Of a stretch of 64,000 nt of DNA, positions 4,196 to 59,106 are shown piece after piece. Under the pieces are notes generated by a model. That model did no database searches and was not told the origin of the DNA. It saw only the letters and a list, made by a program, of their open reading frames with translations. The stretch comes from an uncultured Candidatus Saccharibacteria bacterium (GTDB taxonomy: Bacteria > Patescibacteriota > Saccharimonadia > Saccharimonadales > CAYVSP01). How positions within the stretch are numbered: position 1 is the first letter of the stretch; every line of letters begins with the position of its first letter. Position numbers and translations under genes: made by a program. Where the stretch lies: NCBI GenBank assembly GCA_964584265.1, contig CAZOZI010000001.1:75691-139690 (forward strand). The letters are read 5' to 3'.

Positions 4196-4582
4196 ATGGC
4201 CAGAATCGCAGGAGTTAACATTCCAGCCGAAAAGCAGGTGCACGTAGCACTGACTTATATTTATGGCATTGGACCGGTTGCAAGTACTGCTATTTTACAG
4301 ACCGCTAAGGTTGAGCCGACTGTTAGAGTTAAGAATCTAACTGAGGCGGAACTATCACGGCTGGCTGAAGTCATTAATGCTGATTATGTTGTAGAAGGTG
4401 AATTACAGCGTATTGTAACTGGCAACATCAAGCGATTAAAAGACATTAATAGTTACCGCGGAATGAGACACAAGTTAAATTTGCCCACACGGGGACAACG
4501 AACACGTACGAACGCACGTACTAGACGAGGTAAAAAGGTAACGGTTGGTGGCACGGCTAAGAAGGTAGCCTCAAAGACATAG
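4196..4582 (+). CDS. rpsM: 30S ribosomal protein S13
   Basis: 128 aa. MARIAGVNIP start and the YRGMRHKLNLPTRGQRTRTNARTR motif. Confidence 0.95.
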   Translation: MARIAGVNIPAEKQVHVALTYIYGIGPVASTAILQTAKVEPTVRVKNLTEAELSRLAEVINADYVVEGELQRIVTGNIKRLKDINSYRGMRHKLNLPTRGQRTRTNARTRRGKKVTVGGTAKKVASKT

Positions 4583-20735: not shown

Positions 20736-21011
20736 GTGAGAATCGCAGATATGCCAAACGAACCTAGATTTGAGAGATCAATAGACGGCCATCACACGCA
20801 ACCGGCTAGTACTTTAAGTAGGCCAGAGCGCATTCGGCGCTACTTAACACAAGAAGAAACGAGATGGAATGCACCTTTTGGTGCAGTGATAGCGAGTGTT
20901 GTTGTGTTGATGATTATAGAGAAAACTGGAGTTGATGGTATTGCAAATACTGCTGCGCAAGTCCTTGATTCTACGTTGTCAAAAATAACCGAACTTGATA
21001 GAAGAGAATAA
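20736..21011 (+). CDS. Hypothetical small membrane protein (91 aa) between rplK and rplA
   Basis: The GTG start abuts the rplK TAA. One hydrophobic segment, FGAVIASVVVLMII. No homology recognised. Confidence 0.4.
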   Translation: MRIADMPNEPRFERSIDGHHTQPASTLSRPERIRRYLTQEETRWNAPFGAVIASVVVLMIIEKTGVDGIANTAAQVLDSTLSKITELDRRE

Positions 21012-21077
21012 GTTTAACTTGTGGGACCCGACGCTGTCAGCATGACAGCCGGGGTTTGCACCACAAAGGAGATAGTT

Positions 21078-22097
21078 ATGGCAGAAGCCAAGAAGACGAC
21101 CGCAAAAATTAAGACTAAAAAAGTCGCTAAAAATATTAAGACGAAAGGAAAAGAGATAAAAGATGGGACTATTCAAATCGATGATAAAGCTAAGGTTCAA
21201 GCAAGTAGCCAAGACGAAGAAGTAAAAACTACAGCCAAACCTAAAGTAACAACCACCAAGCAGCCAACCGCAAAAGCTGGTAAACGAAGTACTAAAGCTG
21301 TAAAAGAAGTCGAGGAAAAACGAGCTAAAGAAGAACGTAAAACGCATGCAAAAGAGGAAGAAGTTGCACACAAACCAAAACATCCTGAAAAACCACCACG
21401 CTCTAAGTTAGAGCGCAGAAGCAAAAAATACCGCGAAGCCGCAAAACAAATTGAGGCCGACAAAGACTACACGCTGGAAGACGCGTTAGCCTTAGCCGTT
21501 AAAACAAGCCCAACTAAGTTTGACGCTACTGTAGAGTTACATATAAACCTCGCAGTTGACCCGAAACAGGCAGATCAAAATGTGCGTGGCACCGTAGTTC
21601 TGCCCGCGGGTACCGGTAAAGCCAGCCGGGTAGCTGTTGTTGCAGAAGCTGATGACGCGAAGAAAGCCAAAACAGCTGGTGCCGATGTAGTTGGTAGCGA
21701 TGATATACTAGCCCAGCTTGATAAAGAGAAGCTGGACTTTGATGTGCTTATTGCCACGCCAGCAATGATGGCTCGCCTCGGCAAGTATGCTCGCGTACTT
21801 GGGCCAAAAGGCCTTATGCCCAATCCTAAAAGCGGCACAGTGACAAACGACGTCGTTAAAGCCGTTACAGAAGCCAAGGCCGGTAGAGTTGAGTATAGAG
21901 TAGATACCGCCGGCATCGTTCATGTCGGCATTGGTAAGGTTAGCTTTGGAGCTGCCAAATTGAACCAAAACGCACAAGCCATTTTCACCAACCTAAAAAC
22001 TCATAAGCCAGCCTCTGTTAAGGGCGCGCTCATCATGCGCGCTTATGTAACGACAAGCATGGGCCCAAGCATTTCGTTGACCCTGAGCAGCGTGTAG
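21078..22097 (+). CDS. rplA: 50S ribosomal protein L1 with ~110-aa Lys/Glu-rich N-terminal extension
   Basis: ATG at 21078 with AAGGAG at 21066-21071. The L1 core runs from about aa 112 (RRSKKYREAAKQIEADKDYTLEDAL ... VRGTVVLPAGTGK ... MPNPKSGTV). 339 aa total against about 230 typical. Confidence 0.9.
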   Translation: MAEAKKTTAKIKTKKVAKNIKTKGKEIKDGTIQIDDKAKVQASSQDEEVKTTAKPKVTTTKQPTAKAGKRSTKAVKEVEEKRAKEERKTHAKEEEVAHKPKHPEKPPRSKLERRSKKYREAAKQIEADKDYTLEDALALAVKTSPTKFDATVELHINLAVDPKQADQNVRGTVVLPAGTGKASRVAVVAEADDAKKAKTAGADVVGSDDILAQLDKEKLDFDVLIATPAMMARLGKYARVLGPKGLMPNPKSGTVTNDVVKAVTEAKAGRVEYRVDTAGIVHVGIGKVSFGAAKLNQNAQAIFTNLKTHKPASVKGALIMRAYVTTSMGPSISLTLSSV

Positions 22098-51914: not shown

Positions 51915-52343
51915 TTAGCGGCGCTGGTGACGTCGACGCAGTCCTGCGACGTGCAGGCGTACGCTTGAGCGGTCCATAAGACTTTGAGCCTGGTCAATCT
52001 CTACTTGTGTTTTGGCCTCAGCACGTAGATTTTCTGCTCGTTCAAATGCTTTTTGAGCTTCGGCTTCGCTAATTTCGTCTTCACGGTCAGCTTCATCCGC
52101 CAAGACCCGGACAGTGTCATCAACTATCTCGATGACTCCACCGTTGGTGGCAAAGTATTCAAGCTTATAATCTGGATCGTTGGGTTGCCTGCGAATCGTG
52201 ATGACTCCCGGGGTAGCAATGCTGACAAGGGGCATATGGTGGGGGAAAATACCGACGTATCCTTGGGGAGTCGGTAGGATGACTTCGTAGACATCTTCAC
52301 CGAACTTAGTACCATCTAACGTTACAAGCTCAAAGTGAATCAA
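51915..52343 (-). CDS. atpC: F1 ATP synthase subunit epsilon
   Basis: 142 aa. FELVTLDGTKFGEDVYEVILPTPQGYVGIFPHHMPL is the typical epsilon N-domain. The TTG start overlaps the upstream stop (TTGA). Confidence 0.9.
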   Translation of the reverse strand: MIHFELVTLDGTKFGEDVYEVILPTPQGYVGIFPHHMPLVSIATPGVITIRRQPNDPDYKLEYFATNGGVIEIVDDTVRVLADEADREDEISEAEAQKAFERAENLRAEAKTQVEIDQAQSLMDRSSVRLHVAGLRRRHQRR

Positions 52344-52594
52344 AAATCAACCCCTTCTTCGTCCGGTTTTAGTGAGTTAAATCCAACCTCTCTGTCATCA
52401 GATGCTATAGTAATCTTGGCCCGTTCCGTGCCATCGATGACACGAGTCCTCTGTAGAGTACCTTTTGTCGATACAATTATGTCCGGAGGCGCATCTGACG
52501 CATACACCGCGCTAGCTACAGCGATAATGGCTCGGGTTACATCTATTCTCTCAACGTAATCCGGGGAACTCAATTTGGCTGGATCTGATTCCAT
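52340..52594 (-). CDS. Hypothetical acidic protein (84 aa) between atpD and atpC
   Basis: The ATG lies 2 nt after the atpD TAA. Its TGA overlaps the atpC TTG start (TTGA). 16 Asp/Glu against 10 Lys/Arg. No TM segment. Confidence 0.55.
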   Translation of the reverse strand: MESDPAKLSSPDYVERIDVTRAIIAVASAVYASDAPPDIIVSTKGTLQRTRVIDGTERAKITIASDDREVGFNSLKPDEEGVDF

Positions 52595-52596
52595 GC

Positions 52597-54172
<1,576 letters not shown>

Positions 54173-54176
<4 letters not shown>

Positions 54177-55039
54177 TTTATTGCCTCCGCTCCGCCCGTT
54201 ATTTCAGCCAGTTCTTGCGTAATAGCTGCCTGGCGTGCTGTATTGAACGCCAAAGTTAAATCATCAATCAAATCTGATGCGTTGTCTGTGGCATTTTTCA
54301 TAGCCAGCATGCGCATTGAGTGTTCTGAAGCTTGAGCCTCGCTAAAAGCCTGATTAAGTCGGGCTTCAATCAAACGCTCTGTGACATTTTCCAGCACAGC
54401 CTCAGTTGAGGGTTCAAAAACCGCTTGTTCAAGATCGATAGGCGTCTCAACTTCTGTAAAAGCAGCAGGCAACAAGCGTTGGCTCACTACGACCTGGCTT
54501 ATGCTGGAACGATAATCTGTATAGATCAGATCAACCGCATCAACTGTTTTCGTCGTGAACAGCTCTACTAAAGTATTGAGGATGGGACGCAGATCGTTGG
54601 CATCCGGTTGTTCTGGGAAGTCGTGATAAGCAGCAACGACGCTTACATTCTTAAGGCGCGTGGCTAGTTTTGAGCCCTGTTTGCCAACCACGATAACTTG
54701 GCTCGCAACATTTTGATTACGATCATTTTTAAGTTCGGTCGTGAATTGGCGGAGTAAGTTGCTGTTATAGGCCCCGGCTAAACCACGATCGCTGGTTACC
54801 AATATATGCAGTCGTGTACGAATTGGCCGTGTTTTAAATAGCGGATGCTGGTTTACGTCCGTCAATTCACGCAGACGCGTCAGAATGCCGCCAGCTAGAT
54901 TACTGAAATCACGTGAACGTAGTGCATGTTCTTGGGCACGGCGCATTTTACTAGCAGCAACTAATTCCATGGCCTTGGTAATTTGTTTGGTATTCTTCAC
55001 GGAATTTATCCGGCGCTTGATTGCAATCGTATTAGCCAT
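54173..55039 (-). CDS. atpG: F1 ATP synthase subunit gamma
   Basis: Start at 55039 ([35 protein letters not shown]) with GGGAG SD. C-terminus [16 protein letters not shown]. Confidence 0.95.
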
Positions 55040-56606
55040 CATGCACTCCCAAGTCCGCACCCTTAGATTCATTATTATTCACCTGATATGTCTTTGCGAT
55101 GTGGGTGGCTGTATCAACTATAGCTTTCTTAATATCATCGCTTGGAGCGTCTCCTTGGTTCAGCTTTTCCATGGAATGCTTCTGCTCTTTACCAAGTTGG
55201 TTCAATAATGCTTCCTGCGCTTTTTTAATGTCAGCCAACGGCACAGCGTCAAAACAGCCCTCATTAGCCGCCAGAAGTATGGCAGTTTGTTGCCACACAC
55301 TTAGTGGTGAGTACTGCGGCTGTTTTAGCAGCTCAGTCAAGCGCTGACCGCGCTCAATGCGGTGCTTAGTTTCTTCATCAAGATCGGTACTGAACTGAGA
55401 GAAAGCTGCCAGTTCGCGGAACTGCGCCAAATTAAGACGCAAAGCACCCGCCACGCTTTTGACGGCTTTGGTTTGGGCCGAGCCACCGACGCGAGAAACT
55501 GAAAGACCAACCGAAATGGCTGGGCGGATACCCTGGTAGAACAGATTGGTTTCCATAAAAATCTGGCCATCTGTAATAGAAATTACATTAGTGGGGATAT
55601 AAGCGCTGATGTCACCTGCCTGCGTTTCAATTATTGGTAGGGCAGTCAGAGAGCCAGCGCCAAGTTTATCACTCAGCTTGGCGGCTCGCTCAAGCAGGCG
55701 TGAGTGAAGATAAAACACATCGCCAGGGTAGGCTTCACGACCCGGCGGGCGGCGAAGCAATAGTGCCATTTGGCGATAGGCAACAGCGTGTTTGCTTAAA
55801 TCGTCATAGATAATGAGAGCGTGTTGTTTGTTATCGCGGAAGTACTCGCCGATGGTTGCGCCAGCATACGGAGCAAGGTATTGGAGGCTAGCTGGGTCAG
55901 CTGCGCTCGTAGCGACTACGATAGTCTGGTCCATAACGCCTTCGCGCTTCAAGCGATCTACAATGCGAGCCACTTTACTGATTTTCTGTCCAACCGCCAC
56001 ATAAATGTTGATAACACCTGTATTTTGCCGTTTTTGGTTAATCATAGTATCGACTGCAATAGCTGTCTTTCCGGTTTGGCGGTCACCGATAATTAGCTCA
56101 CGCTGGCCTCGACCAATCGGTACCATAGCGTCAATTGCCGTAATGCCCGTCATAAGTGGCTCATGTACGCTTTTGCGGTCCAACACGCCTGGTGCACGCT
56201 GTTCCACAGCCTTAGTAGTGGTCGCCTTAAGTGGTCCTTTATTGTCCAAAGGTCGTCCTAATGGGTCGACCACACGGCCAACAAGTTCTTTGCCAACCGG
56301 AACTTCCAGGACCTTACCGGTCAATCGTACTTTGGCGCCAGCCTTAACAAGAGTGTCTTCGCCGAGCAGTACAGCCCCAATTTCGTCTTCTGTCAGGTTC
56401 AATGCAAAAGCCATCACCCGACTGCCGTCAGATGCGTCTATCTCAAGCATTTCATTAAAGCCGCACTCAGCTAAGCCATAAATAGAAGCCACGCCATCGC
56501 CGACACGCGTAACAATTCCAACTTTTTCGGCATTGGGCAGCGCTTTAAGCTCCTCAATAGCTTTGCGGATATCGGCTGAAAGTTGTTTGACGGATAGTTC
56601 GCTCAT
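55032..56606 (-). CDS. atpA: F1 ATP synthase subunit alpha
   Basis: Walker A GDRQTGKT plus [26 protein letters not shown] at 56606 ([15 protein letters not shown]) preferred over the TTG at 56618. Confidence 0.97.
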
Positions 56607-56614
56607 GTTGTTTT

Positions 56615-57001
56615 TCAAGTTTCCTTAACTAATTGCTTTAATGTTCTTAAACGATCGTGCACAGTAGCATCAAGTTGTAAATCTAAGGCTTCTAGCTGCA
56701 CTCCACCAACAACTTTTGGATCTTGTTGCTCATTGAGAATAAGATTATCAGCGTTCAAAAAATTGGCGATTTCGCGTTTCAGTTCAGCATTGAGCGCATA
56801 CGCAGTCGTAGCAGTCGCTTCCATGACACCGTAACGCTCTGCTCGGATTTTGGCGACGTCACGCATCAAGCTATTAAGTTCATTCGTTCTATGCTCTTGC
56901 ACTAGGTACTCAGCCACCTCAGCAGCCAAGTGCTCAGTGTTCTCTTCTTGTATCAAACGTGTAATAGTCTCAGCCAATTGTTTGCGAGTCAACTTATTCA
57001 T
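56615..57001 (-). CDS. atpH: F1 ATP synthase subunit delta (OSCP), unusually short
   Basis: 128 aa. The C-terminal part ([21 protein letters not shown]...[28 protein letters not shown]) matches the delta pattern. The N-terminal domain is about 50 aa shorter than usual. ATGA overlap with atpF. Confidence 0.8.
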
Positions 57002-58000: not shown

Positions 58001-58822
58001 TTATGCCACAGAACCCTGCCGCATCTCGGTTTGTTCATCTGTATGATCTGGTTCTGAAGAATGTGCTTCATCATGATGGCTAGTAGCCAAGCTCAGGTAA
58101 ACAATGACCAACATGGTGAAGACAAAGGCTTGGATGAAGCCGACAAACAGCTCCATAAGTATAAACGGCAAAGTAGCTGCCGGCGAAAAGTAGCTAGTAA
58201 TAGAGGACAGTACCAAAAGCAATACTTCACCAGCAAAAATATTGCCAAATAAACGCAGCGCCAGGCTAGCCACACGAGTTAATTCACCTAATACTTCAAG
58301 AAAACCAACGAACAGATTGATAGGATTCCAAGGTTGTTTACTAAAGTAATGGCTGGCAAATCCCTTAAAGCCCAGCTCCCTGGCCGAATATATTAAAACT
58401 AGAATGATTGAGGTTATGGAAAGAGCTAACGTGCCGGTTAAATCAGACGTCCATGCTCTAAAGAGCGGCTCGCCGTGGTACATAATGCTACCCACTCCAG
58501 GTAAAAGCCCAAACCAGTTGTTGAACATGATGAAACAAAACAGTGTGATCAAAAATGGGGCATAACGGGCTGCTTTTTTACGATCATGCATGACACCTAC
58601 AGTTAAGCTTATGACGCCTTCGCAAAGAATCTCAATTAAACTTATAGCTTTGCCGCCCGCCATTAGCTTAATTCTAGGTGCGGCAACCATAAAAACTAAA
58701 ACCAGCAGCGCACTAACCAGCCAGCCGAGCAGCATGGAGTTGGTTATATTTAGTCCGCCGAGCTGGAATAACCGCTCAGAATGCAGAACTACATTAAAAT
58801 CGTTAGCTACTAATATATTCAT
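58001..58822 (-). CDS. atpB: Fo ATP synthase subunit a
   Basis: 273 aa polytopic protein. Conserved LALRLFGNIFAGE motif with the essential Arg. Confidence 0.9.
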   Translation of the reverse strand: MNILVANDFNVVLHSERLFQLGGLNITNSMLLGWLVSALLVLVFMVAAPRIKLMAGGKAISLIEILCEGVISLTVGVMHDRKKAARYAPFLITLFCFIMFNNWFGLLPGVGSIMYHGEPLFRAWTSDLTGTLALSITSIILVLIYSARELGFKGFASHYFSKQPWNPINLFVGFLEVLGELTRVASLALRLFGNIFAGEVLLLVLSSITSYFSPAATLPFILMELFVGFIQAFVFTMLVIVYLSLATSHHDEAHSSEPDHTDEQTEMRQGSVA

Positions 58823-59106
58823 TACTTGGTGTCTTTCTTGAAAAAGTCCGGATAAGCCACCTGAATTTGGCGGTAAACCAGCAGTCCTGCCACAGCTAAA
58901 GCCAGAAACAAGCCAGAAGTTATAAATAGGGGCTTAGTACCTATGGCTTTATCGAGCTTGTTTCCAACTAGCGTAAAAAGAATTATGGGCACAGCTACAC
59001 GCCACGCAGTATCTGCTAGCTGCAAACCAACAGCAAGCCCACTGACCGTGGATTTTGATCCACCCCCAGTTTTAGTCGTCGTTCCTTGAGCGGCGGCTTT
59101 TCCCAT
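58822..59106 (-). CDS. AtpI/AtpZ-like small membrane protein at head of atp operon
   Basis: 94 aa, two TM segments. TAATG overlap with atpB. Confidence 0.6.
   Translation of the reverse strand: MGKAAAQGTTTKTGGGSKSTVSGLAVGLQLADTAWRVAVPIILFTLVGNKLDKAIGTKPLFITSGLFLALAVAGLLVYRQIQVAYPDFFKKDTK

Follow-up and report, generated by a model that had tools for sequence, protein, structure and literature searches.

What occupies the space between atpD and atpC, the genes for the beta and epsilon subunits of F1, in the ATP synthase operon of an uncultured Candidatus Saccharibacteria bacterium, and is it a new part of the enzyme? The window analysed here is a 64,000 nt stretch of contig CAZOZI010000001.1 (assembly GCA_964584265.1, positions 75,691 to 139,690), and window coordinates refer to this stretch. 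An open reading frame (ORF) of 84 aa, ORF84, covers 251 of the 253 nt between atpD and atpC, and a smaller one, ORF60, lies between atpG and atpD. The initial annotation described both as acidic ORFs interposed among the F1 genes (G-x-D-y-C) and thereby implied a new component of the ATP synthase. Our preferred reading, held with moderate confidence, is that ORF84 is a genuine translated small gene, specific to its lineage, that fills a variable slot between atpD and atpC, where it most likely serves as a ribosome relay and not as a conserved subunit.

The TAA of atpD and the ATG of ORF84 are 2 nt (GC) apart, and a GAGG within the atpD 3′ end lies 10 nt upstream of this ATG. At the other end, the TGA of ORF84 and the TTG of atpC overlap as TTGA, the T and G of the stop codon being the last two bases of TTG, and AAGGGG, which resembles a Shine–Dalgarno (SD) sequence, is found in the last ORF84 codons, 7 nt upstream of the atpC TTG. 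ORF84 is in a different frame from both atpD and atpC. The junctions are thus as first described, and so is the protein, which has 16 D/E vs 10 K/R (pI 4.44; grand average of hydropathy −0.28) and lacks a transmembrane segment, because its maximum Kyte–Doolittle hydropathy over a 19-residue window is only 1.39. The GAGGT...TAA(TG) junction seen at the start of ORF84 serves atpC directly in relatives with no gap. A consensus scan placed no terminator-like or minus-strand promoter-like site within 52340–52599. The AlphaFold2 model made from the single sequence has a predicted local distance difference test score (pLDDT) of 55, with a helix at residues 19–32 and three strands at 38–64, and is too weak for a fold search.

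Shuffling of the 253 nt gap yielded a frame open over ≥95 % of its length in 2.6 % of cases. Codon usage was scored against the 25 long ORFs of the window, and the log-likelihood per codon was +0.097 for the ORF84 frame and −0.15 to −0.68 for the other five. Of similarly sized spurious nested ORFs, 96 % score lower, and among 84-codon windows taken from real genes the score lies at the 11th percentile. The possibility that ORF84 is an N-terminal extension of atpC was rejected, as the TGA ends the frame and atpC is read in another. Both the Pfam and the NCBIfam models of epsilon begin their alignment at profile position 1 with residues 1–2 of the protein initiated at TTG, and this TTG aligns with the ATG of atpC in relatives. 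A mis-annotated 5′ part of atpC is thus excluded for ORF84, in agreement with the initial annotation. A structured RNA was also rejected, since the region has no match to an Rfam covariance model at E≤1 and its predicted folding is not unusual relative to shuffled sequences (z=0.14). By these sequence criteria, ORF84 is a real gene coupled at both ends.

ORF84 is not alone in its position. Matches to atpD assign the window to the Saccharibacteria. We used scripts to analyse 80 species-representative Saccharibacteria loci (identified below, where needed, by L numbers), about 70 species being sampled. The distance between the two genes is bimodal. It is −4 to +21 nt in 35 species, in which the atpD stop and atpC start typically overlap as TAATG or TAGTG, and 150–680 nt in 41 species. 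Among these long gaps (≥150 nt), a sense frame open over ≥95 % of the length is present in 35 of 41, against 5 of 41 for the antisense strand and 1.9 predicted from shuffles, and in 35 of 41 a single ORF of 53–172 aa (median 83) spans ≥90 % of the gap. We refer to ORFs between atpD and atpC that cover ≥90 % of the gap, with the sense frame open over ≥95 %, as slot ORFs. Their starts share the last base of the atpD stop codon (mostly TAATG) in 21 of 35 cases and lie between −4 and +2 nt from this stop in 30 of 35. The slot ORF stop overlaps the atpC start as NTGA in 16 of 35, and an SD-like 4-mer is present 4–18 nt upstream of atpC in 27 of 35, compared to 5.6 expected.

ORF84 is a typical slot ORF in its anatomy and close to the median in length. 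It belongs to the class by its coverage (251/253 nt), by its junctions (start at +2 nt, TTGA overlap, AAGGGG 7 nt before atpC) and by its composition (pI 4.44, hydrophilic, no known domain and no homologues). Very short ORFs also bridge the atpD stop and atpC start, at 4448–4504 in L067 (18 aa) and 4482–4508 in L047 (8 aa); one of about 6 aa at approximately 4485–4504 in L020 was read by eye from a junction listing. The L067 mini-ORF (…LLGVTLEDVIA) is still coupled and resembles the C-terminus of the slot ORFs in L014 and L015, and from this resemblance it looks like a deletion remnant of that ORF.

None of 42 atpD–atpC ORFs contains a Pfam domain. What they have in common is composition: D+E averages 17.5 % against 9.6 % K+R, and the net charge is negative in 85 %. 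For gap DNA that was shuffled and then translated, the values are 7.8 % D+E and 15.0 % K+R, and for long ORFs in these loci they are 11.0 % and 10.7 %. In a charge–hydropathy plot, about half of the atpD–atpC ORFs lie on the disordered side, compared to 1 % of the long ORFs. As the acidic bias stands out against both shuffled DNA and long ORFs, composition seems to be selected even where sequence is not.

All close relatives fetched (atpD 85–92 % identical) have an ORF filling the atpD–atpC gap, with lengths of 100, 111, 53 (48 from the ATG chosen by the gene caller), 72, 66, approximately 79, 61 and 64 aa, and wherever the contig includes the atpC junction, these ORFs overlap the atpC start at their ends or come close to doing so. 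The initial annotation had taken loss of the reading frame in relatives as a sign against the gene; an ORF is present in the same slot in every close relative examined, but its sequence is not conserved. Eight species with atpD ≥90 % identical carry eight unrelated ORFs (84, 100, 66, 53, 111, ~79, 61 and 64 aa). In the clade of the window, epsilon is 85–89 % identical where compared and beta about 91 %, and the DNA of the window and its relatives aligns as far as the end of atpD and then resumes at the start of atpC, with no alignable stretch between the two. However, at the four-fold degenerate sites of atpD the window and its relatives are only 37–38 % identical (Jukes–Cantor distance ≥1.3). 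Neutral sequence is therefore saturated, and the lack of similarity to ORF84 is not by itself proof that one cassette replaced another. At the same divergence, ORF60 is about 48–51 % identical to the atpG–atpD ORF of L010 while ORF84 retains no similarity. Judged from these comparisons, the ORF84 lineage shows no detectable constraint on the amino acid sequence while the frame stayed open.

When the slot ORFs were compared all against all with BLASTP and phmmer, only tiny families were found. Between atpD and atpC these are L010 and L059 (33 % identity) and L014 and L015 (39 % identity); a motif of about 33 aa is common to L012, L032 and L044, and one four-member family was found in the atpG–atpD slot. 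ORF84 matched no other slot ORF in these comparisons, and a search with the alignment of the L010/L059 family returned only those two proteins. The homologous pairs keep 32–54 % identity at saturated synonymous divergence (dS), with a nonsynonymous divergence (dN) of 0.4–0.9 and dN/dS of ~0.33–0.43 where dS could be computed; hence some of the occupants are constrained proteins.

Presence or absence of the atpD–atpC ORF requires at least 18 changes on a 72-taxon tree, and shuffled states average 23.7. Full and nearly empty slots are found within close pairs: the gaps are 262 and 2 nt in L014 and L017 (four-fold-site Jukes–Cantor distance 0.74), 202 and 19 nt in L049 and L047 (1.05), and 217 and 52 nt in L034 and L067 (0.65). 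With unrelated sequences in closely related species, an empty slot in about half of those sampled and gains or losses numbering at least 18, a variable slot occupant fits ORF84 better than a conserved subunit does, and the new ATP synthase component implied at first is not borne out.

Searches outside the operon also left ORF84 an orphan. A word-indexed search of 5.8 billion protein clusters recovered only the identical protein, on four short contigs of runs SRR9179559-62. Apart from ORF84 itself, a full phmmer scan of 1.8 billion representatives yielded an 800-aa FG-GAP repeat protein, P0122 (E=9.9e-4). The P0122 score spans five matched repeat stretches, with pairwise identities to ORF84 of 35–39 % over 34–46 aa, and we suspect that it was inflated by the repeats. 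Kinship with the FG-GAP repeat (PF01839) was rejected, as Pfam detects no FG-GAP in ORF84 at E≤1, and ORF84 has YASDAPPD where the repeat has D-x-N-x-D-G, so that the calcium-binding D-x-D-x-DG loop is not kept. The match is at best a faint resemblance and is treated as chance. No Pfam or NCBIfam family was found at E≤1, nothing significant was found in PDB (best match a fimbrial subunit, E=0.087), PHROGs or PADLOC, and a scan of JGI metagenome contigs and IMG/VR viral contigs with the ORF84 protein gave no match. A known ATPase inhibitor or regulator (IF1, zeta or others) was rejected as there was no Pfam, NCBIfam or PDB match. Repeat, blastn, tblastn and tblastx searches found no source copy or paralogue in any frame in the 64-kb window or in 91 loci. 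The gap contains no inverted repeat longer than 11 nt, and with ORF84 present as a single copy within the window and loci, a miniature inverted-repeat transposable element (MITE) or palindromic mobile element was also rejected. ORF84 and ORF60, described at first as unrelated, share only an 11-residue resemblance (SPxxVxRxD, E=0.048) that we treat as chance.

The relay that we favour for ORF84 would work as follows. ORF84 would be transcribed within the atp operon, and ribosomes that end atpD at its TAA, and/or are recruited by the GAGG in the atpD 3′ end, would start at the ATG 2 nt further on. They would translate the 252-nt insert and stop at the TGA that overlaps the weak TTG start of atpC, where the AAGGGG in the ORF84 3′ end would aid re-initiation. 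Passage from atpD via ORF84 to atpC would occur by termination–reinitiation or by unmasking of the start site. Selection would act to keep the insert translatable, such that epsilon stays coupled to beta, and not on a particular amino acid sequence. It would also keep the abundant by-product peptide harmless, and the acidic, soluble and non-membrane composition would follow because a peptide made at near-beta levels must do no harm. A relay would account for the stereotyped junctions, the SD-like sequences in the ORF 3′ ends, the surviving mini-ORFs, the read-through of repeats (see below) and a frame that is unconstrained and yet open. An unconstrained peptide would be randomised at the saturated four-fold distance seen here, yet the frame stayed open, and this supports a relay. 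We infer from these features that ORF84 is translated, that atpC depends on the coupling and that the peptide itself is dispensable.

Slots are also found elsewhere among the F1 genes. The atpG–atpD junction is tight (≤60 nt) in 16 of 70 loci and expanded (≥150 nt, up to 1604 nt) in 51 of 70. The atpG–atpD gaps hold from none to about three ORFs, the first of which usually starts 4 nt inside the atpG stop. The atpA–atpG junction is tight in 35 of 63 loci and expanded in 28 of 63 (69–691 nt). Where this gap is ≥150 nt, the sense frame is open (≥90 %) in 22 of 24 cases and the antisense frame in 1 of 24. The atpA–atpG slot ORFs (59–216 aa) are coupled, mostly acidic and mutually unrelated (e.g. 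L013, L021, L032 and L045). In the window, only the slots holding ORF60 and ORF84 are filled, and the atpA–atpG junction is tight. In its longest form, the atpG ORF shares 41 nt with the 3′ end of atpA (window 55032–55072, minus strand). The Pfam gamma profile matches only from residue 17 onwards, and the offsets used to align relatives assume a conserved start near residue 12, for which reason the actual atpG start is probably located downstream, which would give the tight junction.

Several findings weigh against a simple relay. Some slot ORFs elsewhere are under moderate purifying selection, and the class is thus not purely filler. The atpC gene has its own SD-like sequence and might not need ORF84 for initiation. 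No slots were seen other than at the atpA–atpG, atpG–atpD and atpD–atpC junctions; all 19 atpH–atpA and all 8 atpF–atpH junctions were tight and none was expanded, in a sample biased towards loci with short downstream gaps. This restriction hints at an F1-specific role, and the acidic bias could reflect function rather than harmlessness.

The alternative to which these points lead is that ORF84 and the other slot ORFs are F1 accessory proteins (regulators, inhibitors, or assembly or solubility helpers) that depend on composition and can hence diverge or be replaced. We regard this as possible though not probable. The acidic bias is convergent across unrelated ORFs and opposite to that expected from DNA composition, the slots lie only among the alpha, gamma, beta and epsilon genes, several slot families have dN/dS of ~0.3–0.45 and ORF60 is conserved, the ORFs would be co-translated beside beta and epsilon, and the basic C-terminal tail of epsilon (RRRHQRR) could bind an acidic partner. 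However, the atpD–atpC ORF is absent in about half of the species (35 of ~70), including very close relatives of carriers, and the epsilon tail carries the same charge whether or not this ORF is present (+5.9 with it vs +5.8). ORF84 is also without any homologue, its AlphaFold2 model is of low confidence (pLDDT 55), and it matches no known family of ATPase regulators in Pfam or PDB. In the window, epsilon ends in GLRRRHQRR (51915–51960, minus strand), and across the loci the last 15 residues have a mean net charge of approximately +6.

A different origin, which overlaps with the relay that we prefer, is that ORF84 is a selfish cassette, a recent capture of foreign or mobile DNA that landed where expression is high and insertions are tolerated and that stays only because atpC expression would suffer if it were lost imprecisely. 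For ORF84 we consider this unlikely, though inserted DNA does occur in the slots of other loci. L040 (JACOTW010000002.1) contains a MITE-like 163-bp element in two copies, at 2683–2845 and 4320–4482, that are 90 % identical and have terminal inverted repeats of ~45 nt. One copy lies in the atpG–atpD ORF and the other in the atpD–atpC ORF, both are read in frame (dN/dS 0.72), and no exact match to the element was found in JGI metagenome contigs. The atpG–atpD slot of L065 holds a 134-aa ORF whose product is an intervening-sequence protein of 23S rRNA (PF05635, E=2.4e-34). The 682-nt gap of L081 (3819–4500) carries, at gap positions 317–360, a copy of sequence from the atpC 5′ region (4528–4571) that is 44 nt long and 82 % identical. 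Presence of the ORFs is also patchy on the tree. ORF84 has none of these insertion signatures: there are no terminal inverted repeats, no second copy in any frame in the 64-kb window or the 91 loci, no PF05635 match and no atpC duplication. It matches no phage or defence family, and its GC content and codon usage are host-like. The N-terminus of the L065 protein (MSQESRVKSQE) resembles the start of the unrelated atpA–atpG ORF of L070 (MSHESRVTSHE).

That the region is a non-coding spacer or structured RNA with an ORF due to chance or the gene caller, or a part of atpC or atpD with a mis-set start or frameshift, could appeal to a short orphan ORF without homologues and to an antisense frame open over 84 % of the gap, but is very improbable given a shuffle probability of 0.026 for this gap and 35 of 41 open frames against 1.9 expected for the class, a codon signal in the ORF84 frame only, the lack of an Rfam match with a folding z of 0.14, an epsilon that aligns from residue 1 at TTG behind a stop codon that blocks upstream extension, and a frame that differs from those of both neighbours.

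The features discussed are listed in Table 1.

Table 1. Positions in the window of ORF84, its two junctions, the flanking genes and ORF60
Feature	Coordinates	Strand	Details
ORF84 CDS	52340..52594	minus	84 aa, pI 4.4, orphan; fills the atpD–atpC slot
Upstream junction	52592..52608	minus	GAGG 52608–52605 in the last atpD codons, atpD TAA 52599–52597, GC, ORF84 ATG 52594–52592
Downstream junction	52340..52356	minus	SD-like AAGGGG 52356–52351, atpC TTG 52343–52341, ORF84 TGA 52342–52340
atpD (F1 beta), upstream partner	52597..53994	minus	PF00006, PF02874, PF22919
atpC (F1 epsilon), TTG start, downstream partner	51915..52343	minus	Pfam/NCBIfam epsilon models
ORF60, atpG–atpD slot	53994..54176	minus	Coupled at both ends; ~48–51 % identity in relative L010/L006

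Some further features of the window were noted. A 91-aa orphan ORF with no Pfam match (20736–21011, plus strand) directly follows the stop of rplK (L11; 20304–20735), and the rplA (L1) ORF (21021–22097, plus strand) has ~140–160 extra lysine-rich N-terminal residues before the L1 domain. Additional coding sequence at junctions between conserved genes may thus extend beyond the atp operon. The gene for L7/L12 (27518–28033, plus strand) encodes 171 aa, and an N-terminal extension of ~48 aa precedes the dimerisation domain. In the atp operon, the delta subunit (56615–57001, minus strand), the oligomycin sensitivity-conferring protein (OSCP), is 128 aa long and matches its profile from position 47; the relatives have 129–131 aa, and the usual OSCP N-terminal part seems to be missing in the clade. 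The 94-aa ORF upstream of atpB (58822–59106, minus strand), called atpI earlier and only a candidate for that gene, has no significant match in NCBIfam.

The clade-wide pattern of slots is of more interest than ORF84 itself. If ORF84 is a relay, essential operons that are sensitive to stoichiometry would absorb insertions for as long as the insert is translatable and its peptide harmless, and the slots would offer a clean natural system for work on translational coupling, on the robustness of operons and on how small proteins arise and turn over, with three defined junctions and dozens of independent replicates. If it is F1 on which the peptides act, an ultra-small episymbiont lineage would have a new level of regulation or assembly of its ATP synthase, one that is not constrained in sequence. 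A broader proposal, which we regard as doubtful, is that the F1 genes of Saccharibacteria are interleaved (alpha-x-gamma-x-beta-x-epsilon) with undescribed, hypervariable, acidic and coupled mini-proteins, ORF84 being one member. These would act by composition, e.g. as co-translational solubility or assembly helpers or as charge-based modulators of F1 on the basic epsilon tail, or else the relay ORFs would be an unrecognised form of stoichiometric coupling across insertions. For annotation, we recommend that slot ORFs are kept as genes and labelled by position, and not as a conserved ATP synthase subunit.

We found no prior description of interposed hypervariable acidic ORFs at three F1 junctions in full-text literature searches, nor any account of a G-x-D-y-C arrangement, for which the initial annotation knew no precedent. 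The coupling junctions are of the known beta–epsilon type, and the interposed ORFs match no known family of atp accessory or regulator proteins. ORF84 is best described as an operon-embedded, translationally coupled, orphan small gene, and parts of this description have counterparts elsewhere.

Small soluble and partly disordered proteins or domains that act on F1 include the epsilon C-terminal domain, alphaproteobacterial zeta, mitochondrial IF1 and cyanobacterial AtpTheta. Regulators of the zeta, IF1 and AtpTheta type are conserved families and are not known to be encoded between atpD and atpC. ORF84, in contrast, has no Pfam, NCBIfam or PDB match, is not conserved in near relatives and occupies a slot that is empty in about half of the species. 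Small non-subunit genes embedded in atp operons include atpI, atpZ, atpQ and atpR, which encode membrane proteins, belong to conserved families and are found on the 5′ side or in N-ATPase operons. ORF84 is likewise a small gene embedded in an atp operon, but its product is soluble, acidic and orphan.

Rickettsia palindromic elements, exonised MITEs and 23S rRNA intervening-sequence proteins are cases in which inserts persist in conserved expressed loci, where they are read through or tolerated. Inserts of the translated-repeat and intervening-sequence types occur in the slots of L040 and L065, but ORF84 has no inverted repeats, second copy or PF05635 match. Species-specific orphan or young prokaryote genes (PMC11293555) are, like ORF84, short, without homologues and under weak or no detectable constraint. 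Relative to such orphans, ORF84 differs in its recurrent, position-specific slot, its stereotyped coupling junctions and the acidity of its class.

The closest parallel is the coupling of beta to epsilon. Translational coupling of these two genes, and termination–reinitiation at overlaps or very short distances, are established according to the review PMC12548453, which lists Gatenby 1989 (chloroplast atpB/atpE), Huber 2019 and Huber 2023. Coupled beta–epsilon genes, such as chloroplast atpB/atpE with its ATGA overlap, and termination–reinitiation gene pairs are like ORF84 in that stop and start overlap or abut (TAATG, NTGA) and the SD sequence lies inside the upstream gene. The coupled partners are subunits of one complex, and Saccharibacteria with no gap show exactly such an atpD/atpC junction. 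The window differs from such pairs in that an additional, unrelated ORF stands between the two genes with coupling at each of its ends, and coupling of beta to epsilon would pass through this relay ORF.

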